Of a stretch of 64,000 nucleotides of DNA, positions 1 to 37,001 are shown piece by piece. The translations under genes and the position numbers were made by a program. The first letter of the stretch is position 1, and each line of letters begins with the position of its first letter. The notes below the pieces were generated by a model. The model had not been told where the DNA came from. It ran no database searches and saw nothing but the letters and a program-made list of their open reading frames with translations. Where the stretch lies: NCBI RefSeq assembly GCF_054482525.1, contig NZ_CM137006.1. The stretch is one strand, 5' to 3'.

Positions 1-200
1 CGTGGCAAGGGCCGGTAGAGCAGCATCCTCTGGTGAATTATCTCGACCATGAAGGTGGCGCGTTATCGAACCCAACGCCAGAGCACTATCTGCCGTTGTT
101 GTATGTGTTAGGTGCGTGGGATGGGCAGGAGCCAATTACCATTCCGGTCGATGGTATAGAAATGGGCAGTTTAAGTATGCTGTCGGTGCAGATAGGTTAA
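1..200 (+). CDS. ygiD: 3' end of ygiD-like extradiol dioxygenase (partial; codons in phase with position 3, stop 198-200)
   Basis: Open frame ending TAA 198-200 translates ...HPLVNYLDHEGGALSNPTPEHYLPLLYVLGAWDGQEPITIPVDGIEMGSLSMLSVQIG; assignment by recognition and synteny next to ygiC. Confidence 0.6.
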   Translation, partial: WQGPVEQHPLVNYLDHEGGALSNPTPEHYLPLLYVLGAWDGQEPITIPVDGIEMGSLSMLSVQIG

Positions 201-206
201 TAAAAG

Positions 207-237
207 AACCCGAAGCCAGAATGACTGGCTTCGGGTG
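207..237. terminator. Stem-loop between convergent ygiD and dsbI (acccgaagccag / ctggcttcgggt)
   Basis: Perfect inverted repeat seen directly in sequence between two convergent stops. Confidence 0.6.
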
Positions 238-245
238 TTGCTGAG

Positions 246-917
246 TTAGCCTCTGATGATTTTAAGCGCCCATGCGCCACTCATAATGACCAGCAGCACC
301 AGACACATACCAAAAGCCAGCATACAAGCCTGAGCCATATTCATAAAATGCCATGGTGGTAGCAGATACCAGCCTTCAGATTGCTGATACATTTCCACAA
401 ACCACTGTTGCGTGCTGCTCAGTGTGACGCCATCAGGAACGATTGGTGCGTCATAGCCACAATCCCCGGTAGGCTTGAACCAATTTGGTGCCCACTGTGC
501 CAGCGGCAGGTTAAAGGGAAAAGTTGGATCGGTAGAGCAACCCTGTACGCCAAACAGTGAATCGGGATCCGGATTATGTACTGCATGGTGGATATCGTTC
601 AGTTTGAGCGAAAACTTCAGTCCCAAAATGCTGCCGTAAAATGCCATCACGCAGCCAATTAGCTTTAGGATGATGTTCTTTGGGTTGATCGCTGCAACCA
701 ATCCTCCAATAACCATCACAAACATGGCGTAGCGAATGTATACACATTGCTCACAGGGTGCCATGTAGAGATAGATCTGGAAGAAAGAGTGCGCCAGGAT
801 AATTAACGCGCCCATCGCAACGGCCATTAACAACCACAACAAGCGTTGCTCCTGCCATCTGACCAGTGTGTCAACTGGTGATGTGCGAAGATCTTTCCAC
901 ATTCCCTTAATACCCAT
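246..917 (-). CDS. dsbI: DsbB-family membrane thiol oxidase DsbI
   Basis: 223-aa ORF, multi-helix hydrophobic protein with paired Cys; last gene of assT-dsbL-dsbI arrangement. Confidence 0.8.
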
Positions 918-931
918 AGCCTGTTTCCCTG

Positions 932-1600
932 TTATTTGCTTGCTAACTCGCGGATAAGGTCTGCCATTGAGTCAATAGATTTAATACTCTTGGTGTAGAT
1001 CAGGTATTTACCATTGACGACATACGCCGGAACGCCCTGGATTTTTGCAACTTCATAAGAGGCTTTCCATTTTTCCAGCGTTTCTTGAACTGCAGGCTCT
1101 TTCAGCGCGGCTTCAAAATCGGCCTGACTCATACCTGCGGCGTCCAGTCCGGTTTTGATAAAGGCAGCCGGATCTTTACCATCAGACCAGCGTTCTTTTT
1201 TGTCATGATAAGCCGCGTAATAAGCAAACTTGGCTTTCTTAAACTGAGAGTTAGCATCAAATAATGAAATACCTGCTGCTTTATCTTTATTGATCAAGAC
1301 CGCAAAGACTTCGCTTGCTTGTTTGCCGTATTCACCTTTTGTTTCCAGATGGAATGGAGTAAAAGCAACGATATCTTTCACTTTTTCCGATACCGGACCG
1401 GTAACCGCTTTGTCGTACTTGTAACAGAACGGGCAGGCGTAGCTGAATACCTTAATCAGCGTTTTGTCTGCATTCGGAATAGGTTTTTCCAGAACCATGT
1501 AATCCGTGCCTTCGGTAAATGCAGAAGCGGTAAATGAAACAGCCAAAGCTGCGGTAAGCAGTATGCTTTTAAATAGTGATGAGATCCCTAATTTCGACAT
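932..1600 (-). CDS. dsbL: Periplasmic thiol:disulfide oxidoreductase DsbL (DsbA-like)
   Basis: 222-aa ORF with signal peptide and CPFC active-site motif ([11 protein letters not shown]). Confidence 0.85.
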
Positions 1601-1617
1601 TTTTATTCCCTTCTTAA

Positions 1618-3414
1618 TTATTTGAACATCTGTTGTGGACGGACTAACAATGCACGATAGTGAGTCTGATTGGGTTTATCTGACAGCACGTCGATTTCCA
1701 CTTTCACTTCTTTGGTTTTGTAATCGATTTCGTTCAACTTACCGACGGTTGGCTGCCCGACATCGAACAAATGAATAGAACCACCGAAGCCAAACATGGT
1801 GTTACGGTCGGCTTGATATTCAATGATGGAGGTGATTGGGCTATAGAAATCGTAGCCACGTTCTTTACCGTATTCCCACACTTGCTGAACGGTGCCTTTC
1901 TTCTCATCAATCTTATATTCCACAAAGCGGGAGTATTTCATGGTTGGTAAGGCAGGTTGTTCCAGATGACGCCCATCGCCATTATCAAAAATGGTGAGCG
2001 TTCCTTTGCTGGAAATCCAGGCGGTATGCTGGGTGTAGGTAAAGTCGAAGTCTGAGTTTTCGCACAGGCCATTTTCGTTACAGGTAATTGGCTTACCGTT
2101 AGCATCAACCGGTTTCAGCAGCTTGCTGGCCAGCGGTTTTTCCCAACCTTTAGAGGGCGCAAGGATCCATTTCACTTGCTTATCACGACCAATCTTCACA
2201 ACACCCTGGTGACGAGAAGAGAGAATAATTGAGTCATCTTTTGCGTCATAAGCGATGGAATTAACGTGCGCCCAGTTACGGCCTGGCCCTACACCCAGAG
2301 CGTCGCCGAACGGTGTATCTGGTTCCAGTTTTGCCTGTTGTCCTGCATGGGCAAGGTCAACGTTAACGCAAACTGCACCTGCATCCAGCGCGCCGAGCAG
2401 TGCATCGCGTTTCGGATCGAGGATCTTCGTCAGATCCCATACATCGACAACGCGACCAGATTTATCGACTTCGAGGATATGGTCACGAATGGTGGTGACG
2501 TGTACGCCGTCATCGCGACGGTAATTGCTCTTACCTACGCGCAACAATACTGTGCCATTTGGCGTCTCAATGGATTCATGAGTAGCGTCAGCAAATCCGC
2601 GCGGTAGTTTGTGATCTTCGAGCACCTGCCCCATCATGTCGAACTCGTACCAGTGCTGACCTTGTACAGCGGTAAAGGTGCCGCGTGGCGTTTCGCGGAT
2701 ACCCATCAGATAACCACGCTTGTTGATATCGCGGTCACGACCATCGTAGAAAGTGTCTTGATCCAGCCACCAGCGGTATTCACCTTCGGTATCGACGATG
2801 AAAGTAAAGGGCGCGATATCAAAAGGGAGTGCGCCAGTTGCCGGACCCGCATCAAGGATACCGGCATTTTTATCTTTCTCACCATGCCAGTGGAGATCGG
2901 AACCTTGGGCGGTAAAGGTGTGGGTATTAACCAGATAGAGGCGATCTTCAAAACCTGGCGCGACTTTAACGACTTTGGTTTGCTGTAGGTCGGAGATGGA
3001 GCGGTTATCCATGTAATTGTTGACGATGGCCGAAGTGTGCACCACATAATCATCTTTCATGACCTTGCCGTTTTCTTTCCACTCAACGGTCACTTTGTTA
3101 GCAAATTTCTGATAAAGACCAAAAATCGGTACACCATCGTAAGTTTTTAGTGATTCCTGACCCACGGGATAGCTGATTTCTACGCCTTTTTCGCCCTTCC
3201 CATGGACGGTAACTTTGACGTCAGAAATAACATGGCTATCTAAGTCAACCAAAGCGGTCAGTGGTGCATTGCCGTAGGGATCGACAATGACCGCACCCAG
3301 TTGCCCGGCAGGCGGCGCTGGTTTAAAACCCGCAGCCATCACCCCCGATGCTGACAAACCCAGGGTTATCGCCACAGTTCCGGCTACGAGTGTTTTTCTA
3401 TATTTATCAAACAT
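1618..3414 (-). CDS. assT: Periplasmic arylsulfate sulfotransferase
   Basis: 598-aa ORF with signal peptide; sequence recognised as ASST family; operon with dsbL/dsbI. Confidence 0.85.
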   Translation of the reverse strand: MFDKYRKTLVAGTVAITLGLSASGVMAAGFKPAPPAGQLGAVIVDPYGNAPLTALVDLDSHVISDVKVTVHGKGEKGVEISYPVGQESLKTYDGVPIFGLYQKFANKVTVEWKENGKVMKDDYVVHTSAIVNNYMDNRSISDLQQTKVVKVAPGFEDRLYLVNTHTFTAQGSDLHWHGEKDKNAGILDAGPATGALPFDIAPFTFIVDTEGEYRWWLDQDTFYDGRDRDINKRGYLMGIRETPRGTFTAVQGQHWYEFDMMGQVLEDHKLPRGFADATHESIETPNGTVLLRVGKSNYRRDDGVHVTTIRDHILEVDKSGRVVDVWDLTKILDPKRDALLGALDAGAVCVNVDLAHAGQQAKLEPDTPFGDALGVGPGRNWAHVNSIAYDAKDDSIILSSRHQGVVKIGRDKQVKWILAPSKGWEKPLASKLLKPVDANGKPITCNENGLCENSDFDFTYTQHTAWISSKGTLTIFDNGDGRHLEQPALPTMKYSRFVEYKIDEKKGTVQQVWEYGKERGYDFYSPITSIIEYQADRNTMFGFGGSIHLFDVGQPTVGKLNEIDYKTKEVKVEIDVLSDKPNQTHYRALLVRPQQMFK

Positions 3415-3864
3415 GGATATATCTCCTTATATAACGCAAATATATAATAATGATGAATATCGACTGTTGAGAGGGTGCTAATAAATTCGTTACGTGAATA
3501 TAAATATTAATTCAATAAAGAGTGAGAATGCTTTTGTGTTTCTTTTAAATATGTTGTTATTCGGTGAAACAAATATTTATGTTTAATGGATAGTAGGTGG
3601 GCAATATATCAATCACAATGTTCAATACTGTGTAGTGTGATCCCTGCAACATTGTTTTTTAATTATTAAATTTAAATCTGGTGAGATAAAAGTAAAGTAT
3701 TTAAATAATATCAAATAGTTATGTTGTGATGTATTCATTTACTTTAATTACAATATCGCTTGCATATGACGATTTAACATTAAATTGAGTATTAATGTTA
3801 AATAAAGGTTGGATATGTATGCGTTTATATATTGATGGGAATTATGAATGGTGGATTATAAGAG

Positions 3865-3887
3865 ATTGCCCCGCTTATCGGGGCAAT
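3865..3887. terminator. Hairpin attgccccg-ctta-tcggggcaat just downstream of ygiC
   Basis: Perfect 9-bp inverted repeat immediately 3' of the ygiC stop. Confidence 0.5.
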
Positions 3888-3898
3888 ATTAAGCTGTA

Positions 3899-5059
3899 TT
3901 ACTCAACAAAAATATGCGGATAAAACCGAGACATATCCTGGGTGATCAATGCACGGTCTTCACGAATGCCAATTCCGGCAGGTTGATCGTTCACCAGCCA
4001 GCTACCAATCAGCATATAGCTGTCGCCGAATTTCGGTAACGGGTGGAATTGCTGAACAATCATCCCTTCTTCGCCATACGGACCTTCCGCTGCTTCAATG
4101 GTTTTGCCGTTCTCAATGATCGACACGTTTGCGCCTTCACGGGAGAAGATCGGTTTAACCACATATTTTTCCATTTGCGGATGATCATCTTCCGCAAAAT
4201 AAGCGGGCAGCAGGTTCGGGTGATTCGGGAACATCTCCCACAGTAGCGGTAGAAGCGCTTTGTTGGAGATAATGCTCTTCCACGCCGGTTCCAGCCAGCG
4301 TACGCCTGCATCCTCCAGCTTGGTGGAGAACATCTCACGCAACATAAATTCCCACGGATACAGCTTGAACAGGTTGGAAATCACCTGATCCTGTAAATCC
4401 GTGAACTGACCTTTTTCACCTAACCCGATATCGTCGATGTAGAGGAACTCGGTAGCGATTTCAGCTTCCGTCGCGCAGTCCTGCAAATACTGAATGGTTC
4501 CGCGATCTTCCACCGTGTCGCGACAGCAGGTGAGATGCAGCAACTGGAAGCCATACTGTTCACGCAGCTCAACGAAGCGATCGATCAGCTTTTCTTGCAA
4601 ACTGTTAAACTGGTCGCTGCCCTCCGGCAAGTTACCGGCGTTAAGCTGATCTTCCAGCCAGATCCACTGAAAGAACGCCGCCTCGTATAGTGACGTTGGC
4701 GTATCGGCGTTATTTTCCAGAAGTTTAGGTTCGCCAGTGCCATCCCACGCCAGATCAAGACGCGAATAAAGCGATGGCTGGTGCGTCAGCCATGACTGGC
4801 GCACAAAACTCCAGGTGTGTTTTGGTATGCGGAATTTGGTCATCAGCTCATCGCTGGCGATCACTTTTTCCACCACTTTCAGGCACATCTGGTGCAGTTC
4901 GGCGGTGACTTCTTCCAGCTTTTCAACCTGAGCGAGGGTCAACTTGTAGTAAGCATCTTCACACCAGTACGGCTCGCCGTACATGGTGTGAAAATTGAAA
5001 CCGTATTCGTGGGCTTTTTCGCGCCAGTCCGGGCGCTCGGTAATACTGACTCTTTCCAT
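3899..5059 (-). CDS. ygiC: Glutathionylspermidine synthase-like ATP-grasp protein YgiC
   Basis: 386-aa ORF; homologous to synthetase half of Gss; tolC-ygiB-ygiC order. Confidence 0.9.
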
Positions 5060-10080: not shown

Positions 10081-11976
<1,896 letters not shown>

Positions 11977-12004
11977 TAATCCTCCCGCCAGAAGAATAAA
12001 AAAT

Positions 12005-12037
12005 AGCCCGGTATACAAGTGTATACCGGGCTTTTTT
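12005..12037. terminator. Bidirectional rho-independent terminator (agcccggtatac..gtataccgggct + T-run)
   Basis: Perfect stem followed by TTTTTT between convergent parE and receptor gene. Confidence 0.75.
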
Positions 12038-12039
12038 GA

Positions 12040-14181
12040 TCAAAATTCCATTTTCACCGTGAATTGCACTTCACGCGGATCGCCAATCTGATTCCCCAGA
12101 TTATTTGTGGCGATGGAAGAGGTGTAATACGTTTTATCAAACAGGTTTTTGACGTTTAATTGCAGTGTGACCGGATACTGCAATTTCATTTTGTATGCAG
12201 CGAAGGCATCGGCAACGAAATAGCCTGGCAGATAATAGTCAGCCCCATTGGTTGCCGAACGACGGCTTACGCCATGTCCACCACCGCCAAACGTCAGTGT
12301 GTTATTGCCAGGCATGTTATGAATGTCATAAGTCAGGAATAGCGAACCGGTATGACGAGGAACATTCGGCAATGGTTTCCCTGCATAATCAGGATCCTCC
12401 AGAACCTTAGCATCGGTATAGCCGTAGCTGGCAATGATATTAATGTTTTCAGTTAATGCTCCCGCAAGGTCGACTTCTACCCCTCTTGAACGAACACGGC
12501 CTGCCGTTTTGGCAATGCTTTCATCACCAATACTTTCGGTATACAACACGTTACGTTTATGGATATCAAACAGCGCAATATCTGCGGTGATACCATCGAA
12601 TAGCTCGAATTTTGCCCCGACTTCGTAAGCATTAGATGATTCCGGTGGAAGATCGCCAATGTAGCTGGCAATTGACGACTGCGGCATAAATGTTTGCGAA
12701 TAATTGGCAAATAAGGATACCGATGGCGTCAGTTTGTAGACTAACCCCAGTTTGGGCGTCCATTGTTCATCGCGGCTGTCAGTATTGACATTAAAAGGAC
12801 GGCCTTTACCCGCATACTGCGTGTAATACTGATAGCGGATCCCGGCGACGGCAATCCAGTTATCGGTCAGATAGAGCGCGTCCTGTGCATACGCTGAGTA
12901 GCTCTCCTGTTTGATCGTCTGATCACTGTCCGACGCCGAAACCGTTGTGCATTTGCTGGTATTGCCATAAACGGGGTTGTAGATATTGAAATCTTTAGCG
13001 TTTTTACAGCGAATCATATCTGTGCGCAGAAGATCATAATATTCATATGACACCCCACCCAGAATCTCATTATAGAACCCAGCAATATCAGCATTCCCTT
13101 GCAGATCCGCACGAGTAGAATGCATACGCTGGGTAGATCCCTGAGTTGCATCAACACGCCGTGTCAGCGTTCCTGTCGTTGCATCATACGCGGTAACGCG
13201 AGCCTGATTGTCGCTGTATTTATCCTGGCTGTAGCTGTAATCAAAGCGCGCTGTCCACTGGCTATTGAGATGATATTCTGCGTTGAGTTGCGCCAGATCG
13301 GACTGACCATCTGTAATATTAAACGGTTCGTCAAAACGTATTTTTCGATCAACGTTTACGGGCTGTTTCGTCGTAAGGTCGAAAATCGTTCCACGATCGA
13401 ACGGAGTTTTATAGTCCCGATGGGAATAGAGCATGGTTACTGTTGCATTATCACCAAACCAGGTGAGTGACGGGGCAATAAATGTACTGCGCTCTTTACC
13501 GAAGTTTCGCCAGTAATCTTCATCCTGCACTTCCCCCGTCAGGCGGTATGCCAGCTGAGTGCCTTCAATGGGACCTGTGATATCAAGTTGCCCAGTGCCT
13601 CCGCCAAAACTGGAGGACGTGGCTGAGACAGAACCATGGAATGTTTTTTCCGGGCGCTTGGTCACGACGTTAATCAATCCACCAGGATCGAGAATGCCAT
13701 ACAGCGTGGAGGCCGGACCTTTTAGCACTTCCACACGTTCTGTGGCGGCGTTGAAACTGCGAGGAAGTACAGTTCGCAGGCCGTTGGTCATGATGGAGCC
13801 ATCCCGGTTTGCGCCAAACCCACGGCGTACAAAAGCATCCTGAGTCCCGCCTAATGTATTGGTCTGTACCACGTTACTGACGTTATAAAGCGCCTCATCC
13901 AGCGTTGTCGCATTCTGGTTTTCCAGAACCTGATCGCTAACCGTATTGACCACCTGCGGGATATCCAGCATCGGCATATCGGTTAATGTCGCCGTAGAGG
14001 TGCTCAGAGGTTGATAACCATCGGTTGCCTCAGTTGCGGTATTTGCATCTGCTGTAACAGTGATTGTTTCGCCATCTTTGGTCGTTACAGAGTCTGTTGC
14101 ATGAATCATCGGTGCCGCAAAAAGCAGTGAAAAGAGCGCCCGACCTTTGAGTCCTGAGAATGAAGGTGTGAACATAGCCAT
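12040..14181 (-). CDS. TonB-dependent outer membrane siderophore receptor (Fit-like, FitA?)
   Basis: 713-aa ORF with signal peptide, plug region and C-terminal terminal-Phe beta-barrel; divergent from ABC importer operon. Confidence 0.85.
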   Translation of the reverse strand: MAMFTPSFSGLKGRALFSLLFAAPMIHATDSVTTKDGETITVTADANTATEATDGYQPLSTSTATLTDMPMLDIPQVVNTVSDQVLENQNATTLDEALYNVSNVVQTNTLGGTQDAFVRRGFGANRDGSIMTNGLRTVLPRSFNAATERVEVLKGPASTLYGILDPGGLINVVTKRPEKTFHGSVSATSSSFGGGTGQLDITGPIEGTQLAYRLTGEVQDEDYWRNFGKERSTFIAPSLTWFGDNATVTMLYSHRDYKTPFDRGTIFDLTTKQPVNVDRKIRFDEPFNITDGQSDLAQLNAEYHLNSQWTARFDYSYSQDKYSDNQARVTAYDATTGTLTRRVDATQGSTQRMHSTRADLQGNADIAGFYNEILGGVSYEYYDLLRTDMIRCKNAKDFNIYNPVYGNTSKCTTVSASDSDQTIKQESYSAYAQDALYLTDNWIAVAGIRYQYYTQYAGKGRPFNVNTDSRDEQWTPKLGLVYKLTPSVSLFANYSQTFMPQSSIASYIGDLPPESSNAYEVGAKFELFDGITADIALFDIHKRNVLYTESIGDESIAKTAGRVRSRGVEVDLAGALTENINIIASYGYTDAKVLEDPDYAGKPLPNVPRHTGSLFLTYDIHNMPGNNTLTFGGGGHGVSRRSATNGADYYLPGYFVADAFAAYKMKLQYPVTLQLNVKNLFDKTYYTSSIATNNLGNQIGDPREVQFTVKMEF

Positions 14182-14278
14182 TTAGTCTGTTATCCCAAAA
14201 ACTCGCGGATTGTCGCGAGTGAAAATTGTTTCTTATTGCTCACTAAGCACTATCCGTTTGTTATTTCACCATCGGATA

Positions 14279-14302
14279 TGTAATTGAGAATCATTCAATC
14301 AT
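14279..14302. promoter_or_regulatory. Candidate Fur box in divergent promoter region
   Basis: taattgagaatcattcaatc resembles GATAATGATAATCATTATC (about 13/19 by eye); AT-rich divergent region. Confidence 0.3.
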
Positions 14303-14554
14303 GCGGTGATGTAGTAGTAAATGAGAAATAACAAAAAATTGCTACATGTGTTTTTATGAGAGGTTAATGCAATTCAATTGATGGTAATTTATTAATATTT
14401 AATGGTTTTATTTTTATCTTTAAAAATATTTCACCTGTTATTTACCTTGTTTTTGTGTGGCTTTTAACTGCTTGACTACTACATTTTGTGGCGTCAAACT
14501 CTCAAAGGAGAATGAGTTTTATTTTTGTTTGTCTTTGATTAAGTTGGCGTACAC

Positions 14555-15364
14555 GTGGCACATAACGCAAAAGGGCAGGGGCTGATCCTCGACAATGTTT
14601 CTGCCGGGTATCACAAGAAAATCATTGTTGATGGTGTTTCTTTCTCCGTTCCCACAGAAAAAATGACCGTTCTGGTTGGGGCAAACGGCTGTGGAAAGTC
14701 GACGTTGCTCAGCACCATTGCACGTATCTTGCAACCCATGGGCGGTTCGATATTGCTGGATGGTAAAGCGATTCACGAGCAACCAACGAAAGCGTTATCC
14801 CGTAGACTTGGGATCTTGCCGCAGTCGCCATTATTGCCGGAGGGCTTAACCGTTTATGAACTGGTGTCGCGTGGGCGTTTTCCCTGGCAGAATTTCATTC
14901 GTCAATGGAGCGACGCCGATGAGCTGGCGGTAGAAGAGGCCCTGAAATTAACGGGTACGCAGGAGTTTGCACATTTACCTGTTGAAAAACTCTCTGGTGG
15001 GCAGCGCCAGCGTTGCTGGATTGCGATGGTGTTGGCGCAAAAGACGCCTTATATCCTGCTGGATGAACCCACAACCTGGCTTGATTTACGTTATCAGGTT
15101 GAAATTCTTGAGTTATTACATGATTTAACACGTCATCACGGGCGTACAGTCGTCGTGGTGTTGCATGATCTGAATTTTGCCGTCAATTATGGCGATACGT
15201 TGATATTTTTACGCCAGGGGAAAGTGGTGCGTGTGTTGAATGAGGGGGAGCATTGCACGCCTGAGCTGGTAAAAGCGGTCTTTGACGTTGATGTTCACGC
15301 ATCAATAAATCCTCTGACGGGAAAGCCGTTCTTCATGCCGTTTCGTGGTGTAGAAAAAGTATGA
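14555..15364 (+). CDS. Iron-siderophore ABC transporter ATP-binding protein (FhuC/FecE-like)
   Basis: 269-aa ORF with Walker A GANGCGKST and LSGGQRQR signature; GTG start forced by in-frame stop at 14540. Confidence 0.85.
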   Translation: MAHNAKGQGLILDNVSAGYHKKIIVDGVSFSVPTEKMTVLVGANGCGKSTLLSTIARILQPMGGSILLDGKAIHEQPTKALSRRLGILPQSPLLPEGLTVYELVSRGRFPWQNFIRQWSDADELAVEEALKLTGTQEFAHLPVEKLSGGQRQRCWIAMVLAQKTPYILLDEPTTWLDLRYQVEILELLHDLTRHHGRTVVVVLHDLNFAVNYGDTLIFLRQGKVVRVLNEGEHCTPELVKAVFDVDVHASINPLTGKPFFMPFRGVEKV

Positions 15365-16344
15365 TGCGCACAGGGCTGGTTACTGTAATTTTCCTCGCCT
15401 TACTGCTGGTGGGATGCGTGGTATATCCAGGGATTGGTGCCCGATTTATTGCACCACAAACGGTATTGCAGGCATTTCTTCATTTTGAACCGCAAAACTT
15501 CGATCACAACGTAATTGTAAGACTCCGTTTGCCGCGTTTAGCGGCAGCATTGCTTACCGGTGCTTCTCTTGGAGTTGCTGGTGCTTTGTTGCAGGCTGTC
15601 ATTCGTAACCCATTGGGGGAGCCACATATTTTAGGCTTAAATGCCGGAGCCGCTCTTGCTGTCGTTGCTGCCAGTGCGCTTGGGCTGGCCTTTCCGGTTG
15701 GACGCCCACTGCTGGCATCTACGGGCGGCGCGTTATTGTTCCTGTTGATATTGCTGCTTTCCTCCGCAGGGCGTTCAGGGTTAACGCCAATGAAAGTTAC
15801 TTTATGCGGCGTGGCGCTATCGGCGTTCGTGTCCTCAATAACGGCTGCAATCCTGATTCTTGACGAACAAACACTGCTGGCGATGCGGACATGGCTAGCA
15901 GGTGATTTAGCGGGGCAGGATTGGGCGACGCTGGGTACGTCCGCCTGGTTTTCTCTGGGGGGATTTGTGTTAGCCCTTTACCTTGCACCCTCCCTTAACA
16001 TGTTGGCACTGGGCGATCGCATGGCGCAGGGGCTGGGCGTCTCTGTACTCCGCACGCGAACATTCACCCTGCTTGCGATCGCGTTGCTCTGTGGCGCAGC
16101 CGTATCGATTGCTGGCCCCATTGGTTTTGTCGGCCTGCTAGTACCGCAGATTGTCCGGCGTCTGGTATCAGCGGATCTGCGCGTTCTGCTCCCTCTTTCA
16201 GCTTGTGTCGGCGCACTTTTGTTATTACTGGCAGATATTATTGCCCGTACGCTTTTCACGCCCCATGAATTAGCGACCGGTGTCATGACGGCGTTAGTTG
16301 GTGCGCCTGTTTTTGTCATTATGGCGACGAGGATGTTCAAATGA
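15361..16344 (+). CDS. FecCD-family ABC permease
   Basis: 327-aa hydrophobic ORF, 4-nt overlap with upstream ATPase gene. Confidence 0.85.
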   Translation: MMRTGLVTVIFLALLLVGCVVYPGIGARFIAPQTVLQAFLHFEPQNFDHNVIVRLRLPRLAAALLTGASLGVAGALLQAVIRNPLGEPHILGLNAGAALAVVAASALGLAFPVGRPLLASTGGALLFLLILLLSSAGRSGLTPMKVTLCGVALSAFVSSITAAILILDEQTLLAMRTWLAGDLAGQDWATLGTSAWFSLGGFVLALYLAPSLNMLALGDRMAQGLGVSVLRTRTFTLLAIALLCGAAVSIAGPIGFVGLLVPQIVRRLVSADLRVLLPLSACVGALLLLLADIIARTLFTPHELATGVMTALVGAPVFVIMATRMFK

Positions 16345-17390
16345 GTCGGATAATGAACGTCGGGCTACGCCCACTACGTGTTGGTAAGTTTTCGACACTG
16401 GTACGCCCTAAAAATCTGCTGTTGCTTGGTGGGCTGTTTCTGTTTGCGGTTGGAATACTGATATTCGGTCTGATGCAGGGTTCTTTCTCTGTTCCGGCAT
16501 CGGAAGTAGGACGAGCGTTGTTTGCTCCAGAAAACGTAAGCACAGACGCACGTTATATTGTGCAGGATATTCGCTTGCCGAGAGTCATCATGGCATTGCT
16601 ATGCGGGGCCATGTTAGGTATGGCAGGGGCCGCAATGCAATCCATTGCACGTAACGGCCTTGCCGATCCTGGGTTAATCGGCGTCAAAGAAGGATGTAGC
16701 GTGGCTGTGCTGTGGCTGATTTTCCAGTTTCCAATGCTGGGAGTGTTCTGGCGTCCAGTGGCTGGTCTTGCTGGTGGCCTGTTGGTGGCTTTAATCGTGA
16801 TTTTTTGTGCGCGCGATATTTCCCGCCCGCGATTTGTTCTGATTGGTATTGGTGTTTCCTGGTTTTTCGCCGCCGGTATCGGTGTATTTATGACCACTGC
16901 AGATGTTCGAGATGTACAAACTGCATTGATGTGGTTATCGGGAAGCCTGCATGCAGCTAACTGGATGTTAGTCGGTATTTCAGCCTGTTGGATGTTGCCA
17001 GCCGCTCTTTTATTGCTGTTCACCGCCAGGACGGCGGATATCGCTCTGCTTGGTCATCAGGTTGCAACCGGGTTAGGGGTGAATAGTTCTCGTCTGGCGT
17101 TGTTACGTGTCGCCGCACCCATAATCCTGACAGCCGTCTGCGTTTCGTGTGTTGGTAACATCGGTTTTGTCGGATTGATAGCACCCCATATATCACGTTT
17201 TATGCTACGTGGCGGGCAGACGACATTACTGCTGGGGAGCGCGGTATCGGGGGCGTTGTTAGTTATTCTGGCGGATAGCATTGGTCGTTTGGCTTTTTTG
17301 CCTTTGCAACTGCCTGCCGGAATCATTATCTCACTGATTGGTGGACCATTTTTTTTGCTACTGCTCTGGCAGCGCAGGAACAGTTTTTAA
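16341..17390 (+). CDS. FecCD-family ABC permease (second)
   Basis: 349-aa hydrophobic ORF, overlaps previous permease stop. Confidence 0.85.
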   Translation: MSRIMNVGLRPLRVGKFSTLVRPKNLLLLGGLFLFAVGILIFGLMQGSFSVPASEVGRALFAPENVSTDARYIVQDIRLPRVIMALLCGAMLGMAGAAMQSIARNGLADPGLIGVKEGCSVAVLWLIFQFPMLGVFWRPVAGLAGGLLVALIVIFCARDISRPRFVLIGIGVSWFFAAGIGVFMTTADVRDVQTALMWLSGSLHAANWMLVGISACWMLPAALLLLFTARTADIALLGHQVATGLGVNSSRLALLRVAAPIILTAVCVSCVGNIGFVGLIAPHISRFMLRGGQTTLLLGSAVSGALLVILADSIGRLAFLPLQLPAGIIISLIGGPFFLLLLWQRRNSF

Positions 17391-17400
17391 CGGGAGTTAT

Positions 17401-18348
17401 ATGCGTTTATTTTTTTCTCTGCTGATACTGTTGTCATTTTTTTCCCGTGCAACAGAACCTGTTCAGGTATTTACTGATGATTTAGGGCGCAAAGTCACTG
17501 TTCCTGCTCATCCAAAGAGAATTGTCTCTTTACACGATCTTGATATCACTATTCCTCTGATTGAGCTCGGTGTACCTCCTGTCGCCAGCCACGGGCGAAC
17601 TCGGCCTGACGGTAGCCATTTCATTCGATCTGGCGCGTTATTGACAGGTGTCGACTTTGATAATTCATCGATCGCCTTTATTGGTACCGCTGATATTGAT
17701 ATTGAAGCGATTGTGGCGGCAAAGCCTGACTTGATCATCACAGAACCGACCCGTAATACGCCCATTGAACAACTTGAAAAAATTGCGCCCACGGTGAGCA
17801 TTGATCATCTCAAAGGGGGCGCGCCAGAAATCTATCGCAAGCTGGCAGAACTTACAGGAACGCAGTCGCAGCTGGCGATACTTGAACGCCGCTATCAGGC
17901 ACAAATCAATGCGCTGAAGGCGACGCTGGACAGCCAAAAAATAACGGTATCGGTGATTCAGGCAAACCAGGGAAAAATTAATGTGATGCATAGCTATCAT
18001 TCGCTGGGGCGGGTATTACGCGATGCTGGTTTTCGTTTTCCGCCGCTGATTGAGAGCATTCCTGAAGGTGGGCGAATGGATGTGAGCGCGGAGCGTTTAC
18101 CTGAACTGGATGCCGATTTTGTTTTTGCAACCTGGCGCGGTGACACCGGTGGTAAACCTCAGGATGAGCTGGCAGCAATGGAAAAAGTCATGCCGGGATG
18201 GTGTCAGTTTCTGACTGCCTGTCGTTCCGGGCGTTATGTGCTGATTTCTCGTGAAGAGGCAATTTCTAACTCCTTTGCATCACTGGGGCTGATGGCTGCG
18301 CAGATACAATCACAAATTGCAGGGCGACCTCTACCGGAGGCTAAATGA
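17401..18348 (+). CDS. Periplasmic siderophore-binding protein (cluster A SBP)
   Basis: ORF track 17338..18348; start trimmed to MRLFFSLLILLSFFSRA signal peptide preceded by GGGAG. Confidence 0.8.
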   Translation: MRLFFSLLILLSFFSRATEPVQVFTDDLGRKVTVPAHPKRIVSLHDLDITIPLIELGVPPVASHGRTRPDGSHFIRSGALLTGVDFDNSSIAFIGTADIDIEAIVAAKPDLIITEPTRNTPIEQLEKIAPTVSIDHLKGGAPEIYRKLAELTGTQSQLAILERRYQAQINALKATLDSQKITVSVIQANQGKINVMHSYHSLGRVLRDAGFRFPPLIESIPEGGRMDVSAERLPELDADFVFATWRGDTGGKPQDELAAMEKVMPGWCQFLTACRSGRYVLISREEAISNSFASLGLMAAQIQSQIAGRPLPEAK

Positions 18349-19232
18349 TCCAGAAAGATAAAGCGCGGGTTGATATTTTTGGTGAGCGTTTTCGCACTCG
18401 CGCGAGTCAGTTAACGCCTGGGTTAAGAGCTGTCGCCAGCTACATTAATGAGCATCGTGAAGTGGTACTCGAGCAAACGGCGATGGAAATTGCGGCCACG
18501 TTGAACACTTCCGATGCCACAGTTATCAGGGCTATACAGGCCCTGGGGTTTGCCGGGCTGCGTGATCTGAAACGCACTCTGGAACAGTGGCTTGGTCCAG
18601 CCCTTAGTTCCAGCGAAAAGATGTCTACGACGGTGAGTAACTTGACGAGCGATGTTAACACCGCAATCGACTTTGTTCTTGAAGGGCATTTGTATACCTG
18701 TAATGTCCTGTCAGAGCCTGAAAACCGCCACGCGCTTGCGCAAGCTGTAGCGTTGTTGGTGCAGGCACGGCAAGTCGCAATTTTTGGCATTGGCGCTTCG
18801 GGTATTCTGGCGGACTATACCGCACGACTATTCAACCGCATAGGTTTGCCTGCCACGGCACTAAACCGTACGGGGATTGGCCTTGCCGAGCAACTGATCG
18901 CGCTTCAACGTGGCGATGTTCTGATCATGATGGCGCAAAAATCTGCGCACCGGGAAGGGCTGACAACGCTTCGTGAGGCGAGGCGGCTGGGGATCCCTGT
19001 TATTTTGCTGACAAACGCGCTGGATTCGCGTTTTAGCAAAGACGCCAGTATCGTGATTCATGTTCCGCGCGGGGATGAAAAAGGGAAAACGCCGCTACAT
19101 GGTACGGTATTGTTGTGTCTGGAAATGATTGTCTGGTCGGTAGCTTCCGCAGTGCCGCAGCGTGCGGTTAAAACCATTAAGCGAATTAACGATTTCCATC
19201 GAGGACTGAAAACGGGAAGAAAGAATGGCTAA
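18345..19232 (+). CDS. RpiR/MurR-family transcriptional regulator (HTH + SIS domain)
   Basis: 295-aa ORF; N-terminal HTH, C-terminal SIS-like phosphosugar-binding region; start overlaps binding-protein stop (ATGA). Confidence 0.75.
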   Translation: MIQKDKARVDIFGERFRTRASQLTPGLRAVASYINEHREVVLEQTAMEIAATLNTSDATVIRAIQALGFAGLRDLKRTLEQWLGPALSSSEKMSTTVSNLTSDVNTAIDFVLEGHLYTCNVLSEPENRHALAQAVALLVQARQVAIFGIGASGILADYTARLFNRIGLPATALNRTGIGLAEQLIALQRGDVLIMMAQKSAHREGLTTLREARRLGIPVILLTNALDSRFSKDASIVIHVPRGDEKGKTPLHGTVLLCLEMIVWSVASAVPQRAVKTIKRINDFHRGLKTGRKNG

Positions 19233-19276
19233 TCTGGGCTGAGACCGGTAGCAACACCGGCCTCTTTTCAGGAATG

Positions 19277-20203: not shown

Positions 20204-20312
20204 TTTTTAACCTCAAGGTGAGACGTTTGCCGACTATAGTACGTCACAGAGCGGTACGGTGAAATTAGCAAAATGTGCAAAGTCTTTTGCGAATTTAGCA
20301 AAAGTCTTACCC

Positions 20313-23505: not shown

Positions 23506-25113
23506 ATGTATACGCGAAATTTATTATGGCTGGTCAGCCTGGTAAGTGCGGCTCCTCTCTACGCTGCTGACGTTCCCGCCAACACACCGCTCGCCCCGCA
23601 ACAAGTCTTTCGTTACAACAATCATAGCGACCCAGGCACGCTCGACCCGCAAAAGGTAGAGGAGAATACTGCCGCGCAGATTGTGCTGGATCTGTTTGAA
23701 GGTCTGGTATGGATGGACGGTGAAGGCCAGGTGCAGCCCGCTCAGGCTGAACGCTGGGAGATACTGGACGGCGGCAAGCGCTATATTTTCCATCTGCGTA
23801 GCGGTTTGCAGTGGTCAGACGGTCAGCCTCTGACGGCAGAGGATTTTGTCCTCGGCTGGCAGCGCGCGGTTGACCCGAAAACGGCAAGCCCTTTTGCTGG
23901 CTATCTGGCACAGGCGCACATTAACAATGCCGCGGCTATTGTTGCGGGTAAAGCAGATGTTACATCGCTGGGTGTCAAAGCGACGGATGATCGTACTCTT
24001 GAAGTTACGCTTGGGCAGCCAGTTCCTTGGTTCACGACGATGCTCACCTGGCCGACGCTGTTCCCGGTTCCTCATCATGTCATCGCTAAACATGGCGATA
24101 GCTGGAGTAAGCCAGAGAACATGGTTTACAACGGTGCCTTTGTGCTTGATCAGTGGGTAGTTAACGAAAAGATTACTGCACGCAAAAATCCAAAGTACCG
24201 CGATGCGCAACATACAGTATTGCAACAGGTTGAGTATCTGGCGCTGGATAATTCGGTCACCGGCTATAACCGCTATCGCGCGGGAGAGGTCGATCTCACC
24301 TGGGTTCCGGCGCAGCAAATTCCCGCCATTGAATAATCACTGCCTGGCGAGCTACGAATTATCCCGCGTCTGAACAGCGAATATTACAACTTTAACCTTG
24401 AGAAACCGCCATTTAACGATGTGCGGGTGCGTCGGGCGCTATATCTTACGGTTGATCGACAGCTTATTGCGCAAAAGGTACTGGGGTTGAGAACGCCCGC
24501 AACCACGCTGACGCCGCCAGAGGTAAAAGGCTTTAGCGCGACGACGTTCGATGAACTGCAAAAGCCAATGAGTGAGCGTGTCGCGATGGCAAAAGCCTTG
24601 CTCAAACAGGCGGGATACGACGCCTCTCATCCGCTACGCTTTGAGCTGTTCTACAACAAGTACGATCTGCATGAAAAGACCGCGATAGTGTTGTCTTCCG
24701 AATGGAAAAAATGGCTGGGTGCACAGGTGACGCTGCGCACAATGGAGTGGAAAACCTATCTTGATGCCCGACGAGCCGGTGATTTCATGCTGTCTCGGCA
24801 GTCGTGGGATGCGACGTACAATGATGCTTCCAGCTTCCTGAACACGCTCAAAAGCGATAGTGAAGAAAACGTCGGTCACTGGAAAAATGCGCAGTATGAC
24901 GCCTTACTAAACCAGGCCACGCAGATCACTGATGCGACAAAGCGTAATGCGTTGTATCAGCAGGCAGAAGTGATCATCAACCAGCAGGCACCGCTGATTC
25001 CTATCTACTATCAGCCGTTAATCAAACTACTTAAACCCTACGTTGGCGGTTTTCCGCTGCATAATCCCCAGGATTATGTCTACAGCAAAGAGTTGTATAT
25101 CAAGACACATTGA
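23506..25113 (+). pseudogene. ygiS: ygiS (OppA-like periplasmic binding protein) interrupted by in-frame TAA at 24334-24336
   Basis: ORFs 23443..24336 and 24421..25113 are in the same frame, separated only by one stop codon; combined length 535 codons. Confidence 0.8.
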
Positions 25114-29967: not shown

Positions 29968-30077
29968 TCTTCATACTCGCCCGAGGAGGGCGAGTATGGA
30001 ATACCTTTCGATTTCTCTTTCGTTCCGGCTTATAATCCCCGGCCTTTGATTATTTTTTTATCATTTCTGGAAGCAAA

Positions 30078-32297
30078 ATGAGCTCTATCTCCCTGATCCA
30101 ACCGGATCGCGACCTGTTCTCCTGGCCGCAGTACTGGGCCGCCTGTTTTGGACCGGCACCGTTTTTGCCGATGTCTCGTGAAGAGATGGATCAACTTGGC
30201 TGGGATAGCTGCGACATCATTTTGGTTACTGGCGACGCGTATGTCGATCACCCAAGCTTCGGGATGGCGATTTGCGGTCGTATGCTGGAAGCGCAGGGCT
30301 TTCGCGTCGGGATCATCGCCCAGCCGGACTGGAGCAGCAAAGACGACTTTATGCGTCTGGGTAAACCGAATCTGTTTTTCGGTGTTACTGCTGGCAACAT
30401 GGATTCGATGATCAACCGTTATACCGCCGATCGCCGTTTACGTCATGACGATGCCTACACGCCGGATAACGTCGCGGGTAAGCGCCCGGATCGCGCCACA
30501 CTGGTTTATACCCAGCGTTGTAAAGAGGCGTGGAAAGATGTACCGGTGATCCTCGGCGGTATTGAGGCTAGTCTGCGCCGTACCGCGCATTATGATTACT
30601 GGTCCGATACCGTGCGCCGTTCCGTGCTGGTGGATTCGAAAGCCGACATGCTGATGTTTGGTAACGGTGAGCGTCCGCTGGTGGAAGTGGCGCATCGTCT
30701 GGCGATGGGCGAGCCAATTAGTGAAATCCGCGATGTGCGTAATACCGCGATTATCGTGAAAGAGGCGCTGCCTGGCTGGAGCGGCGTGGATTCCACCCGT
30801 CTTGATACCCCTGGAAAAATCGACCCAATCCCGCATCCGTATGGTGAAGATTTGCCGTGCGCGGATAACAAACCGGTGGCACCGAAAAAGCAGGAAGCCA
30901 AAGCCGTAACCGTGCAGCCACCGCGCCCGAAACCGTGGGAAAAAACCTACGTGTTGCTGCCTTCTTTCGAGAAAGTGAAGGGCGATAAAGTGCTGTACGC
31001 CCATGCTTCGCGTATTCTGCACCACGAAACCAACCCAGGCTGTGCCCGCGCATTGATGCAAAAACACGGCGACCGCTATGTGTGGATCAACCCGCCTGCT
31101 ATTCCGCTTTCTACCGAAGAGATGGACAGCGTTTTTGCGCTGCCATACAAGCGCGTGCCACATCCGGCCTATGGCAATGCCCGTATTCCGGCTTACGAAA
31201 TGATCCGTTTTTCGGTCAACATTATGCGTGGCTGCTTTGGCGGCTGCTCTTTCTGTTCTATCACCGAGCACGAAGGGCGCATTATTCAGAGCCGTTCCGA
31301 AGATTCGATCATTAATGAGATCGAAGCGATCCGCGACACCGTTCCAGGTTTTACGGGCGTGATTTCCGATCTTGGTGGGCCAACTGCCAACATGTATATG
31401 TTGCGCTGCAAATCGCCACGCGCTGAACAAACTTGTCGCCGTTTGTCGTGCGTTTATCCGGATATTTGTCCGCACATGGACACGAACCACGAACCAACGA
31501 TCAACCTCTATCGCCGTGCGCGTGATCTGAAAGGCATTAAAAAGATCCTGATTGCCTCTGGTGTGCGTTATGACATAGCCGTAGAAGATCCGCGCTATAT
31601 CAAAGAACTGGCGACCCATCACGTCGGCGGTTATCTGAAGATTGCCCCGGAACATACCGAAGAAGGGCCGTTATCGAAGATGATGAAGCCGGGCATGGGC
31701 AGCTATGACCGCTTTAAAGAGCTGTTCGATACTTACTCAAAACAGGCAGGTAAAGAGCAGTATCTGATCCCCTATTTCATCTCCGCGCACCCCGGTACGC
31801 GTGATGAAGATATGGTGAATCTGGCGCTGTGGCTGAAAAAGCACCGCTTCCGCCTCGACCAGGTGCAGAACTTCTATCCGTCGCCGCTGGCGAACTCAAC
31901 CACCATGTATTACACCGGGAAAAACCCGCTGGCGAAGATTGGTTATAAGAGCGAAGACGTCTTCGTACCGAAGGGCGACAAACAGCGTCGTTTGCATAAA
32001 GCGTTGTTGCGTTACCACGATCCGGCAAACTGGCCGTTAATCCGCCAGGCGCTGGAAGCGATGGGCAAAAAGCATCTGATTGGCAGCCGTCGCGATTGCT
32101 TAGTGCCTGCGCCAACCATTGAAGAGATGCGTGAAGCTCGTCGCCAGAACCGCAATACCCGTCCGGCGTTGACGAAACATACGCCGATGGCGACCCAGCG
32201 TCAGACGCCTGCTACGGCAAAAAAAGCGTCGTCTACGCAATCTCGTCCGGTGAATGCTGGTGCGAAGAAACGGCCTAAAGCGGCGGTTGGACGTTAA
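30078..32297 (+). CDS. ygiQ: Radical SAM protein YgiQ (UPF0313)
   Basis: 739-aa ORF with CFGGCSFC radical-SAM cysteine motif. Confidence 0.9.
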
Positions 32298-32302
32298 AAA
32301 AT

Positions 32303-32339
32303 ATCCCCGGCAACTGACACGCTACCGGGGATTTTTTTA
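32303..32339. terminator. Bidirectional rho-independent terminator (atccccgg...ccggggat + T-run)
   Basis: Inverted repeat plus TTTTTTT between convergent ygiQ and yqhH. Confidence 0.75.
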
Positions 32340-32597
32340 TCATTCTGCGTACATACGCAAGCAGCGCAGGCAATCAAAATAGTCCTGAGCATCAAGACGC
32401 GTATTGGCTCTGTTAGCTTCGGATTTGGCAGCATAGATTTGTGGGCGTAGTGCTTTCATATCCTGCTCAAGCCGGGCGATTTTGGCATTTAATGTTTGCA
32501 CATTGCTCGCCAGCTGATTGACCTTTTGCTCATTGACGCAGCCACTGAGCAAGCAGGTTGCCAGAACAACAGCTCCCACGGTGAAAATCGTTTTCAT
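32340..32597 (-). CDS. yqhH: Lpp-like outer membrane lipoprotein YqhH
   Basis: 85-aa ORF, lipobox LSGC, coiled-coil. Confidence 0.85.
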
Positions 32598-32647
32598 ATA
32601 GTGTTCCCTTTTATTTATTGTTCCGGCTAATTGTTATTTAATTCAGC

Positions 32648-33574: not shown

Positions 33575-33773
33575 CTGTTTTTCACCTCTCCGTTGCGTTT
33601 ATCCCGGATATAGATGAGTTGTTCTTTTAAGAGCTTCCGGCTCTGCATGATGATGTCCTTATATTTGGCATTCCTGAACAAGGAAGAGTAACAACGGGCG
33701 GGACGCGAGGGGAATAAATGATTTCTGAAAAGTCCGGTAGCGGAACATTACCGCCACCGGGAGAATTTGCATG

Positions 33774-34601: not shown

Positions 34602-34705
34602 ACGTTCCTCCTTTATATGAACTCACCGGAGCAGGCTCCGGTGAGGTGTTGTGAACTTAAGTCTGGACGAAATGCCCGAAAACGAAAGTTTGAGGCGTAA
34701 AAAGC

Positions 34706-35869: not shown

Positions 35870-36005
35870 TACTTGCTCCCTTTGCTGGGTCAATATGAGG
35901 GCAGAGATCGGTCTGCCTGATGTTTTTCATTGTGGTCGCCAGCGCCGTACCTCTCAATGCTCATTTCTGCCAATGTCTTGCCTATTTCTCCAGAGTGCTG
36001 GAGAA

Positions 36006-36962: not shown

Positions 36963-37001
36963 ATACGTTCCCGGTACAGCAGCCGGGAACGGGGAAAATC
37001 G

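Follow-up and report, generated by a model that had tools for sequence, protein, structure and literature searches.

An intact assT-dsbL-dsbI operon in the ygiC-ygiD interval of an Escherichia coli chromosome

Results

The window analysed here is a stretch of 64,000 nucleotides from contig NZ_CM137006.1 (RefSeq assembly GCF_054482525.1). Near its left end, ygiD and ygiC are separated by a module that encodes an arylsulfate sulfotransferase and a DsbA-like/DsbB-like protein pair. The annotation of the two flanking genes was taken from a 100%-identical record, GF131. The features of the locus are as follows.

1-200, plus strand: 3' end of ygiD (4,5-DOPA dioxygenase extradiol); left flank, outside the module
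201-3898, genes on minus strand: the assT-dsbL-dsbI module, exactly 3,698 bp
208-236, minus strand: predicted intrinsic terminator of the operon, between the convergent ygiD and dsbI (terminator scan)
246-917, minus strand: dsbI, 223 aa; DsbB-family inner-membrane quinone-linked oxidase
918-931, minus strand: 14-bp spacer with the ribosome-binding site GGGAAA for dsbI
932-1600, minus strand: dsbL, 222 aa; periplasmic DsbA-like dithiol oxidase
1601-1617, minus strand: 17-bp spacer with the ribosome-binding site AAGAAGGG for dsbL
1618-3414, minus strand: assT (astA), 598 aa; PAPS-independent aryl-sulfate sulfotransferase, predicted to be periplasmic
3415-3865, minus strand: operon regulatory region, AT-rich with about 25% G+C (composition profile)
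3423-3428, minus strand: ribosome-binding site AAGGAG in the assT upstream region
3866-3886, minus strand: hairpin TTGCCCCG-ATAAG-CGGGGCAA, directly after the ygiC stop codon and inside the module (read from the sequence)
3899-5059, minus strand: ygiC; right flank, outside the module

Layout and borders of the module

The preliminary description had placed an assT-dsbL-dsbI operon at 246-3414. Three same-strand open reading frames lie at exactly these coordinates, with database matches far beyond chance, and they are the only genes of the module. They share one strand, a single regulatory region upstream and a single terminator, and the spacers between assT and dsbL (17 bp) and between dsbL and dsbI (14 bp) are short and contain ribosome-binding sites. 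Judged by this arrangement, assT-dsbL-dsbI is a tricistronic operon with one predicted transcript. In the literature the genes form a co-expressed tricistronic operon (PMC7810732, PMC13426309), and a single transcript has been reported for strain CFT073 (PMC7810732).

The position between ygiD, which ends at 200, and ygiC was also as described. In alignments, homology to K-12 stops at the ygiD stop codon, at about window 200-203, and restarts exactly at the ygiC stop codon (window 3899). Identity is 98.3% from there onwards and only 93% over the ygiD end, and both module ends coincide exactly with the stop codons of the flanking genes. The operon is absent from K-12, as had been stated: in MG1655, ygiC and ygiD are 37 bp apart and separated by a hairpin spacer alone. 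The coding G+C content of the module is 42-53%, near that of the flanking genes (composition profile).

The sulfotransferase

AssT is identical at 570 of 571 residues to the crystallised CFT073 enzyme (PDB 3ELQ, 3ETS and 3ETT; 1337 bits and E = 0 for 3ELQ). It matches PF05935 (454 bits) and PF17425 (99.8 bits), both above the Pfam gathering threshold of 24.2. An N-terminal Ig-like domain and a six-bladed beta-propeller follow its 27-aa signal peptide. The precursor extends 27 residues (MFDKYRKTLVAGTVAITLGLSASGVMA) beyond the N terminus of the mature protein that was crystallised, and AssT is predicted to reach the periplasm by way of this cleaved signal peptide. Active-site residues were taken from PMC13426309 in mature numbering. 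The catalytic His436, which carries the sulfo-histidine, is present at precursor position 463, as are the sulfuryl-binding residues His252, His356, Asn358, Arg374 and Thr501 (precursor 279, 383, 385, 401 and 528). Given the 570/571 identity to a characterised enzyme, the protein should have sulfotransferase activity on phenolic sulfate donors. AssT has a single structural disulfide, Cys418-Cys424 (PMC8405906), and both cysteines are conserved here at precursor positions 445 and 451. Colonisation of the mouse bladder was reported to be independent of AssT (PMC7810732). Several human isolates carry an IS3 element within assT, so the gene appears dispensable in some lineages.

The disulfide-forming pair

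The DsbA-like protein with a CPFC motif and its DsbB-like partner were both recovered next to assT. DsbL begins with a signal peptide of 27 aa, and its CPFC motif occupies residues 56-59. It is identical to PDB 3C7M at 193 of 195 residues (E = 2e-126) and scores 49.6 bits against Pfam DSBA (thioredoxin/DsbA fold). On the NCBIfam DsbA equivalog it reaches 78 bits, far under the cut-off of 279, and matches to K-12 DsbA structures have E values of about 1e-12, against 1e-126 for the DsbL structure. By these scores DsbL is distinct from the housekeeping DsbA. It is also reported to be the more oxidising of the two (-95 vs -122 mV; PMC8405906).

DsbI scores 417.7 bits on its own NCBIfam equivalog (NF003304, cut-off 212), just 82.9 bits on the DsbB equivalog (cut-off 157) and 84 bits against Pfam DsbB. 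In an alignment with the E. coli DsbB structure, Cys55/Cys58, Arg62 and Cys127/Cys153 correspond to DsbB Cys41/Cys44, Arg48 and Cys104/Cys130. A hydropathy scan gave overlapping hydrophobic stretches at residues 23-105 and 191-223, consistent with four membrane spans.

Regulatory region and terminators

The 208-236 terminator lies 9 nt past the dsbI stop codon and consists of a 12-bp G+C-rich stem followed by UUCUUUUAUU. Its RNA fold is at -25.3 kcal/mol (z = -7.0), and none of 200 shuffled sequences was as stable. The hairpin at 3866-3886 is probably the terminator of ygiC; its stem is preserved in other Escherichia species by different sequences.

Upstream of assT, a conserved core spans about 3588-3660 (AAAACAATGTTGCAGGGATCACACT...ATTGT...CCTACTATC). 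Footprints in the upstream region are kept across Escherichia species, and the core is kept in Salmonella, Citrobacter, Pseudocitrobacter and Intestinirhabdus irrespective of the slot that holds the module. A conserved TGTNG-N6-TCACA element, which reads TGTTG-N6-TCACA at about window 3636-3651, resembles a CRP site and is a candidate for one. A simple scan of the minus (coding) strand found no sigma-70 consensus promoter. Within the 484-bp AT-rich region, an Rfam search for a hidden RNA gave just one sub-threshold snoRNA match of the kind expected by chance, the sole open reading frames were low-complexity stretches of 20-42 codons, and no yqiD-like remnant was found. The corresponding upstream region of Pseudocitrobacter contains a yqiD-like gene.

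Among four E. coli strains the upstream region is 98.8-99.8% identical and the coding sequences 94-99%. Unusual conservation of the upstream region was considered and rejected because the adjoining 5' end of assT and ygiC are equally conserved; the real feature is therefore a patchy, recombination-like divergence within assT and dsbL.

In Salmonella Typhi the assT cluster is repressed by H-NS and activated by LeuO (PMC4264507), and experimental evidence for this regulation comes from Salmonella only (serovar Typhi). H-NS probably silences the upstream region studied here as well, with LeuO relieving the silencing.

Comparison with known systems

Characterised AssT, DsbL and DsbI of CFT073 are 99-100% identical to the proteins of the window. 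The CFT073 operon shares the gene order, the ygiC/ygiD slot, the 3,698-bp length and the end sequences. DsbI is 100% identical in DNA and protein, AssT differs at one residue (Val149 for Ile, precursor numbering) and DsbL at three, one of them in the signal peptide. At the DNA level the module is 97.7% identical as a mosaic, with 100% in dsbI, 99.0% upstream, 97.6% in assT and 94.5% in dsbL. CFT073 has a chaperone-usher fimbrial operon between yqiD and ribB, which the window strain lacks. Structures from the CFT073 operon are available for AssT (3ELQ/3ETS/3ETT/4P04-4P07) and DsbL (3C7M).

The system had been described as known from uropathogenic E. coli and Salmonella. Both do carry it, but the Salmonella slot is a different one. 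The Salmonella enterica cluster has the same gene order (86% identity for AssT, 88% for DsbL and 85% for DsbI), the same upstream regulatory core and the same tolC-ribB neighbourhood, but is found in the interval from yqiD/zupT to ribB, not in the ygiC-ygiD one. A structure of Salmonella DsbL has also been deposited (3L9U).

K-12 DsbA/DsbB resemble the pair in combining a thioredoxin-fold CXXC oxidase with a four-helix membrane partner that has two cysteine pairs. They differ in the active site (CPHC in DsbA, CPFC in DsbL) and in the length of the membrane protein (176 aa in DsbB, 223 aa in DsbI), the second periplasmic loop being longer in DsbI. More remotely, Campylobacter AstA is homologous to AssT at 40-47% identity and has DsbL-like and DsbI-like genes beside it, but its locus differs in gene order and copy number and its sequences are much more distant.

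Distribution and evolution

The module is present in 1,508 of 5,426 complete E. coli genomes (28%), and in all carriers it is full length (at least 80% of the module). It was found in CFT073, ST131, SE15 (a healthy-adult commensal), 042 (EAEC) and E2348/69 (EPEC), and isolates from possum, sheep, seawater and sediment carry it too. K-12, O157:H7, O111:H11 and the ExPEC strain IAI39 lack it. Among a few reference strains grouped by phylogroup, those of B2 and D carry the module and those examined from A, B1, E and F do not. No usable literature was found on the distribution of the module by phylogroup. We infer that its presence or absence in E. coli follows lineage.

Outside typical E. coli, the same ygiC-ygiD slot is occupied in E. 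whittamii, Escherichia sp. MOD1-EC7003, the divergent, E. coli-labelled SCPM-O-B-8794 and Pseudocitrobacter. In Citrobacter, Salmonella and Intestinirhabdus the module lies between yqiD and ribB, a slot about 2 kb from ygiC-ygiD in Citrobacter and Salmonella. The order assT-dsbL-dsbI is constant in every Enterobacterales locus examined (Escherichia, Pseudocitrobacter, Citrobacter, Salmonella, Intestinirhabdus, Budvicia, Leminorella, Limnobaculum and Edwardsiella).

All three genes have dN/dS values of 0.007-0.12 among four strains, with dS up to 0.29. Divergence is patchy along the module, as in the comparison with CFT073 (identical dsbI, 94.5% in dsbL), and allelic divergence within E. coli is as deep as that between species. 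No integrase, tRNA, direct repeat or IS was found at the module borders, and no remnant of the K-12 spacer inside it. The plasmid collection held no genuine matches; three were returned, in two 4.9-Mb records and one of 0.7 Mb, and these were taken to be chromosomal sequence. In its borders, gene content, composition and plasmid carriage the module is unlike a mobile genomic or pathogenicity island.

Discussion

As judged from the sequence, the known assT-dsbL-dsbI operon is present in intact form at window 201-3898, and nothing in the sequence speaks against that identity. Publications on this operon, its structures and how it works go back to 2008, and routine PGAP annotation recognises it, so it is already known. 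We are highly confident in an overall explanation that joins this operon and its published mechanism to the expression proposed below and to an old polymorphism that follows lineage. The first observation on the operon in the preliminary description is thus confirmed, and its interpretation is supported with the caveats given below.

Following published work on CFT073 and Salmonella, AssT would be exported to the periplasm. There it would take the sulfuryl group off a phenolic sulfate ester and hand it to a second phenol, independently of PAPS, in a ping-pong reaction via a sulfo-His436 intermediate. The enzyme would require one disulfide, Cys418-Cys424, which the very oxidising DsbA paralogue DsbL would insert through its CPFC site. 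The DsbB paralogue DsbI would then re-oxidise DsbL at the inner membrane and pass the electrons to quinones. Transcription would start within the 484-bp AT-rich upstream region and stop at the 208-236 hairpin.

The pair had been called dedicated to AssT. The genes are indeed linked, but the relation is not exclusive: DsbA/DsbB also fold AssT (PMC7810732, PMC8405906), so DsbL/DsbI are not strictly necessary. In vivo, DsbL can partly replace DsbA, and the Salmonella protein restores motility and Pef fimbriae; in vitro, AssT is oxidised by DsbA at a similar rate (PMC8405906). These results would suit a second general oxidative-folding system that mainly serves other envelope or virulence proteins and for which AssT is one client encoded nearby, a view that we nevertheless consider unlikely. 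The three genes travel together in fixed order across the Enterobacterales loci examined, and DsbA-/DsbB-like genes adjoin AssT homologues in Campylobacter too. Such strict linkage fits a client-specific pair, which is the conclusion of Grimshaw et al. 2008 as cited in PMC8405906.

The module had also been regarded as inserted and as pathogen-associated accessory content. The first term describes the comparison with K-12 correctly, but other Escherichia share the slot and signatures of mobility were not found at the borders. As to the second, the module is in CFT073 and not in K-12, but with 28% of genomes carrying it, among them SE15, 042, E2348/69 and environmental isolates, and with IAI39 lacking it, the wording is overstated. 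A recently acquired virulence islet that flags an extraintestinal or uropathogenic strain would accord with the AT-rich upstream region and with the absence of the module from K-12, O157:H7 and O111:H11. That account is largely refuted, and we give it only a small chance. The module ends at the flanking stop codons with none of the border features sought, its coding G+C content is close to that of its neighbours, it has no real plasmid carriage, it occupies the identical slot in other Escherichia species, and its alleles diverge as deeply as species do; the commensal, EAEC, EPEC, possum, sheep, seawater and sediment carriers and the empty ExPEC strain IAI39 tell against it as well.

The slot shared with other Escherichia and the range of commensal, EAEC, EPEC and environmental carriers argue for old Escherichia content. 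From its sequence pattern the module looks like old, freely recombining Escherichia/Enterobacteriaceae content under strong purifying selection and not like a recent island. We lean, by a modest degree, towards ancestral Escherichia content with its own regulatory region, slot-shifted within the tolC-ribB neighbourhood and retained as an old polymorphism, as opposed to a uropathogen-specific acquisition. An ancient insertion at the root of Escherichia, after which the empty allele spread, is just as possible as ancestral presence and later loss, and the K-12-type empty site, a short hairpin spacer resembling the ygiC-ygiD spacers of Citrobacter and Salmonella, agrees with such an insertion.

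That the genes are a silent or decaying remnant, intact by chance and out of use, is very improbable: the CFT073 chromosomal copy is silent under standard laboratory assay conditions (PMC7810732), assT is interrupted by IS3 in several human isolates and the simple scan found no consensus promoter, but the three reading frames are full length with every catalytic residue, dN/dS is low despite appreciable dS, all 1,508 carriers retain at least 80% of the module and regulatory blocks are conserved across genera.

As a discovery the operon matters little, and its practical value lies in annotation. The strain's second disulfide-forming pair in the periplasm bears on the study of DsbA inhibitors, and its PAPS-independent sulfotransferase is of interest for biocatalysis and for the gut metabolism of phenolic compounds and drugs. 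Presence of the module should not be taken as a virulence flag, since it follows lineage and occurs in commensal and environmental isolates; it seems to mark particular E. coli lineages rather than pathogens. If the module is indeed an ancestral polymorphism, this would contradict the published claim that commensal and enteric pathotypes lack it, and would suggest that the module serves phenolic-sulfate metabolism in the gut and not virulence.

Organization and identity of the operon

In every defining feature that can be tested at the sequence level, the module in the window is the published assT-dsbL-dsbI operon. The gene coordinates in the preliminary description match exactly three consecutive minus-strand entries of the ORF list, and the locus is laid out as follows:

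ends at 200, ygiD, convergent with the module, on its downstream side
208-236, terminator hairpin, a 12-bp G+C-rich stem followed by UUCUUUUAUU, 9 nt past the dsbI stop
917-246, minus strand, dsbI (223 aa)
1600-932, minus strand, dsbL (222 aa)
3414-1618, minus strand, assT (598 aa)
3899-5059, minus strand, ygiC, upstream of the module beyond a 484-bp spacer

The genes are separated by only 17 bp (assT/dsbL) and 14 bp (dsbL/dsbI), with a purine-rich ribosome-binding site in both spacers. At the module, the window is 100% identical to the chromosome of GF131, an E. coli strain isolated from chicken meat in Switzerland, and the PGAP names in the GF131 record are aryl-sulfate sulfotransferase, DsbA/DsbL, and DsbI.

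Compared directly with the CFT073 proteins, AssT differs at a single residue (Val149/Ile, precursor numbering), DsbL at three, and DsbI at none, dsbI being identical at the DNA level as well. AssT contains both Pfam ASST domains and aligns to the crystallised CFT073 enzyme (PDB 3ELQ, 3ETS, 3ETT, 4P07) with one substitution over 571 mature residues (1337 bits). All six functional residues checked from a 2026 review (PMC13426309) are kept: His436, which is transiently sulfated according to that review, His252, His356, Asn358, Arg374, and Thr501. The two cysteines of the one AssT disulfide, Cys418 and Cys424 (PMC8405906), are likewise present.

DsbL is identical to PDB 3C7M at 193 of 195 residues, and matches Salmonella DsbL (3L9U) at E = 1e-121 but K-12 DsbA structures at only ~1e-12; its score for the NCBIfam DsbA equivalog is far under the cut-off. 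The CPFC motif previously noticed in the DsbA-like protein lies at DsbL residues 56-59. The crystallised AssT and DsbL chains have their mature N-terminus at residue 28 of the respective ORFs, implying a 27-residue signal peptide for both proteins. DsbI belongs to the DsbB family (Pfam) and passed the NCBIfam DsbI equivalog (417.7 bits, cut-off 212). In the alignment to solved DsbB, its Cys55/Cys58 fall on Cys41/Cys44, its Arg62 on Arg48, and its Cys127/Cys153 on Cys104/Cys130, and its hydropathy profile fits four membrane spans.

Function and the DsbL/DsbI-AssT partnership

By analogy with the characterised proteins, AssT would transfer sulfuryl groups from one phenolic compound to another without PAPS, in a ping-pong reaction via sulfo-His436 (PMC13426309). 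DsbL (E°' about -95 mV, PMC8405906) would introduce the required disulfide into AssT, and DsbI would re-oxidise DsbL, as concluded by Grimshaw et al. 2008 (cited in PMC6067686, PMC7810732, and PMC8405906). All Enterobacterales loci retrieved keep assT, dsbL, and dsbI together with their order unchanged, and this constant linkage supports a client-specific partnership; Campylobacter AssT homologues also adjoin DsbA- and DsbB-like genes. The Dsb pair had been described as dedicated to AssT, which should not be read as exclusive, since DsbA/DsbB also fold AssT and DsbL partly substitutes for DsbA (PMC7810732, PMC8405906).

Regulatory sequences

The terminator hairpin has a predicted fold of -25.3 kcal/mol (z = -7.0). 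At the other end of the operon, the 484-bp upstream region has a G+C content of about 25% and contains blocks kept across Escherichia species, with a core (~3588-3660) that is conserved also in Salmonella, Citrobacter, Pseudocitrobacter, and Intestinirhabdus. A promoter scan of the coding strand for a sigma-70 consensus found none. The S. Typhi cluster is repressed by H-NS and activated by LeuO (PMC4264507), and the CFT073 chromosomal gene is silent under laboratory assay conditions (PMC7810732). These observations lead us to infer that the operon in the window may be similarly silenced.

The C. amalonaticus/Intestinirhabdus loci (L015, L020) have ~100-190 bp extra between the regulatory core and the assT ribosome-binding site. 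This insertion, at columns about 410-600 of the alignment of assT upstream regions (A2), just upstream of assT, contains a GGCCCCGAAGGGG motif resembling a hairpin and is possibly a small repeat element.

The occupied and empty ygiC-ygiD site

The reported absence of the operon from K-12 was borne out: ygiC and ygiD are 37 bp apart in MG1655, with no operon between them. K-12 homology to the window ends at the ygiD stop (200) and restarts at the ygiC stop (3899). The 37-bp spacer is a hairpin that has nothing in common with the module ends and resembles the ygiC-ygiD spacers of Citrobacter and Salmonella. In the window, as in CFT073, SE15, and 042, the module has a length of exactly 3,698 bp, and its ends are the same in all four. 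A mobile island failed every test: inspection of the module borders for repeats, an integrase, a tRNA, or an IS found none, and coding G+C (42-53%) is near that of the flanking genes.

K-12 and IAI39 share one empty haplotype, identical through the junction and the entire ygiD, and the ygiD end differs by ~7% between occupied and empty haplotypes. This pattern fits an old two-allele polymorphism that would have spread by homologous recombination. The empty state may have arisen by secondary loss or may be the older of the two.

Distribution in E. coli

The module is carried by 1,508 of 5,426 complete E. coli genomes (28%), each with at least 80% of it covered. All but one of the remaining genomes gave flank-only matches, the pattern of an empty ygiC-ygiD site that is shared by every non-carrier among the matches listed. 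Matches in the plasmid collection (two 4.9-Mb records and one 0.7-Mb record) are taken to be chromosomal sequence.

Carriers include UPEC CFT073, ST131, EPEC E2348/69, EAEC 042, and SE15, a healthy-adult commensal, as well as isolates from possum, sheep, dog, dolphin, chicken, seawater, sediment, and wastewater. Non-carriers include K-12, O157:H7, O111:H11, and IAI39, a phylogroup F extraintestinal pathogen. Of the earlier label 'pathogen-associated accessory content', the accessory part stands, but the link to pathogens is overstated, given SE15, the animal and environmental carriers, and the absence from IAI39; 'lineage-associated accessory gene set' is the better label. In several human isolates (H102-H107, e.g. 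NZ_CP146681.1 728906-733914) an IS3-family element splits assT in two, and the enzyme is therefore dispensable in some lineages.

Other variable loci in the window

A 7.3-kb accessory block between parE and ygiN (11973-19276) carries genes for a MurR/RpiR regulator, a TonB-dependent siderophore receptor, and the ATPase, two permeases, and binding protein of an iron-siderophore ABC transporter. CFT073, SE15, and 042 also have this block, IAI39 does not, and in the small set of strains compared it is found together with the assT module. The qseC-mdaB spacer (20204-20312) is just 109 bp and lacks ygiZ, as well as the hcp gene and hypothetical gene found there in CFT073 and IAI39; the arrangement in 042 is the same as in the window. 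The ABC transporter substrate-binding protein gene ygiS (23506-25113, plus strand) is interrupted by an in-frame stop (codon 266) and is therefore a pseudogene in this strain. Between ygiS and ygiV, IAI39 has the mqsRA toxin-antitoxin genes, which the window and CFT073 lack. A further accessory block between ygiQ and ftsP (about 30038-37511) comprises genes for a GntR/FadR regulator, three enzymes (one of the mannitol-dehydrogenase family, a zinc alcohol dehydrogenase, and an Ldh-family oxidoreductase), and a three-part TRAP transporter; CFT073 has at least the mannitol-dehydrogenase-family gene through the TRAP transporter, and IAI39 has none of the block between ygiQ and ftsP.

History across genera and allele divergence

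One genome per species was scanned, and flanking proteins were then located by tblastn. The ygiC-ygiD slot is occupied in E. whittamii, Escherichia sp. MOD1-EC7003, the divergent E. coli-labelled SCPM-O-B-8794, and Pseudocitrobacter. In Citrobacter, Salmonella, and Intestinirhabdus the yqiD/zupT-ribB slot is used instead, so that the Salmonella cluster and the window module differ in location. Budvicia, Leminorella, Limnobaculum, and Edwardsiella carry the module in unrelated contexts. From these placements, the module is judged to have long resided in the tolC-ribB neighbourhood, where it has occupied two slots about 2 kb apart.

The yqiD-ribB spacer is itself a variable slot (1006-1268 in comparison locus L001, 39008-44607 in L056, about 5600-9260 in L010/L011). 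Nothing occupies it in the window strain or K-12; in CFT073, SE15, and 042 it is filled by a four-gene chaperone-usher fimbrial operon, and in Citrobacter, Salmonella, and Intestinirhabdus by assT-dsbL-dsbI itself. In Pseudocitrobacter vendiensis (L007, 5419-5643) a divergent 74-aa yqiD-like gene lies upstream of assT, between ygiC and assT, mirroring the yqiD-assT adjacency of Citrobacter and Salmonella; no yqiD-like gene was found in the E. coli ygiC-assT spacer. This difference suggests that yqiD accompanied the module when it moved in one lineage but not in another.

The E. coli alleles diverge in a mosaic fashion. Relative to CFT073, dsbI is 100% identical and dsbL only 94.5% (dS 0.27), and over its first 300 bp SE15 assT is as distant from other E. 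coli alleles as assT of other Escherichia species is. dN/dS values of 0.007-0.12 for all three genes indicate sustained purifying selection. The operon was already known, and the only additions made here are the correction of its supposed pathotype specificity, its two-slot history in the Enterobacteriaceae, and its mosaic alleles.
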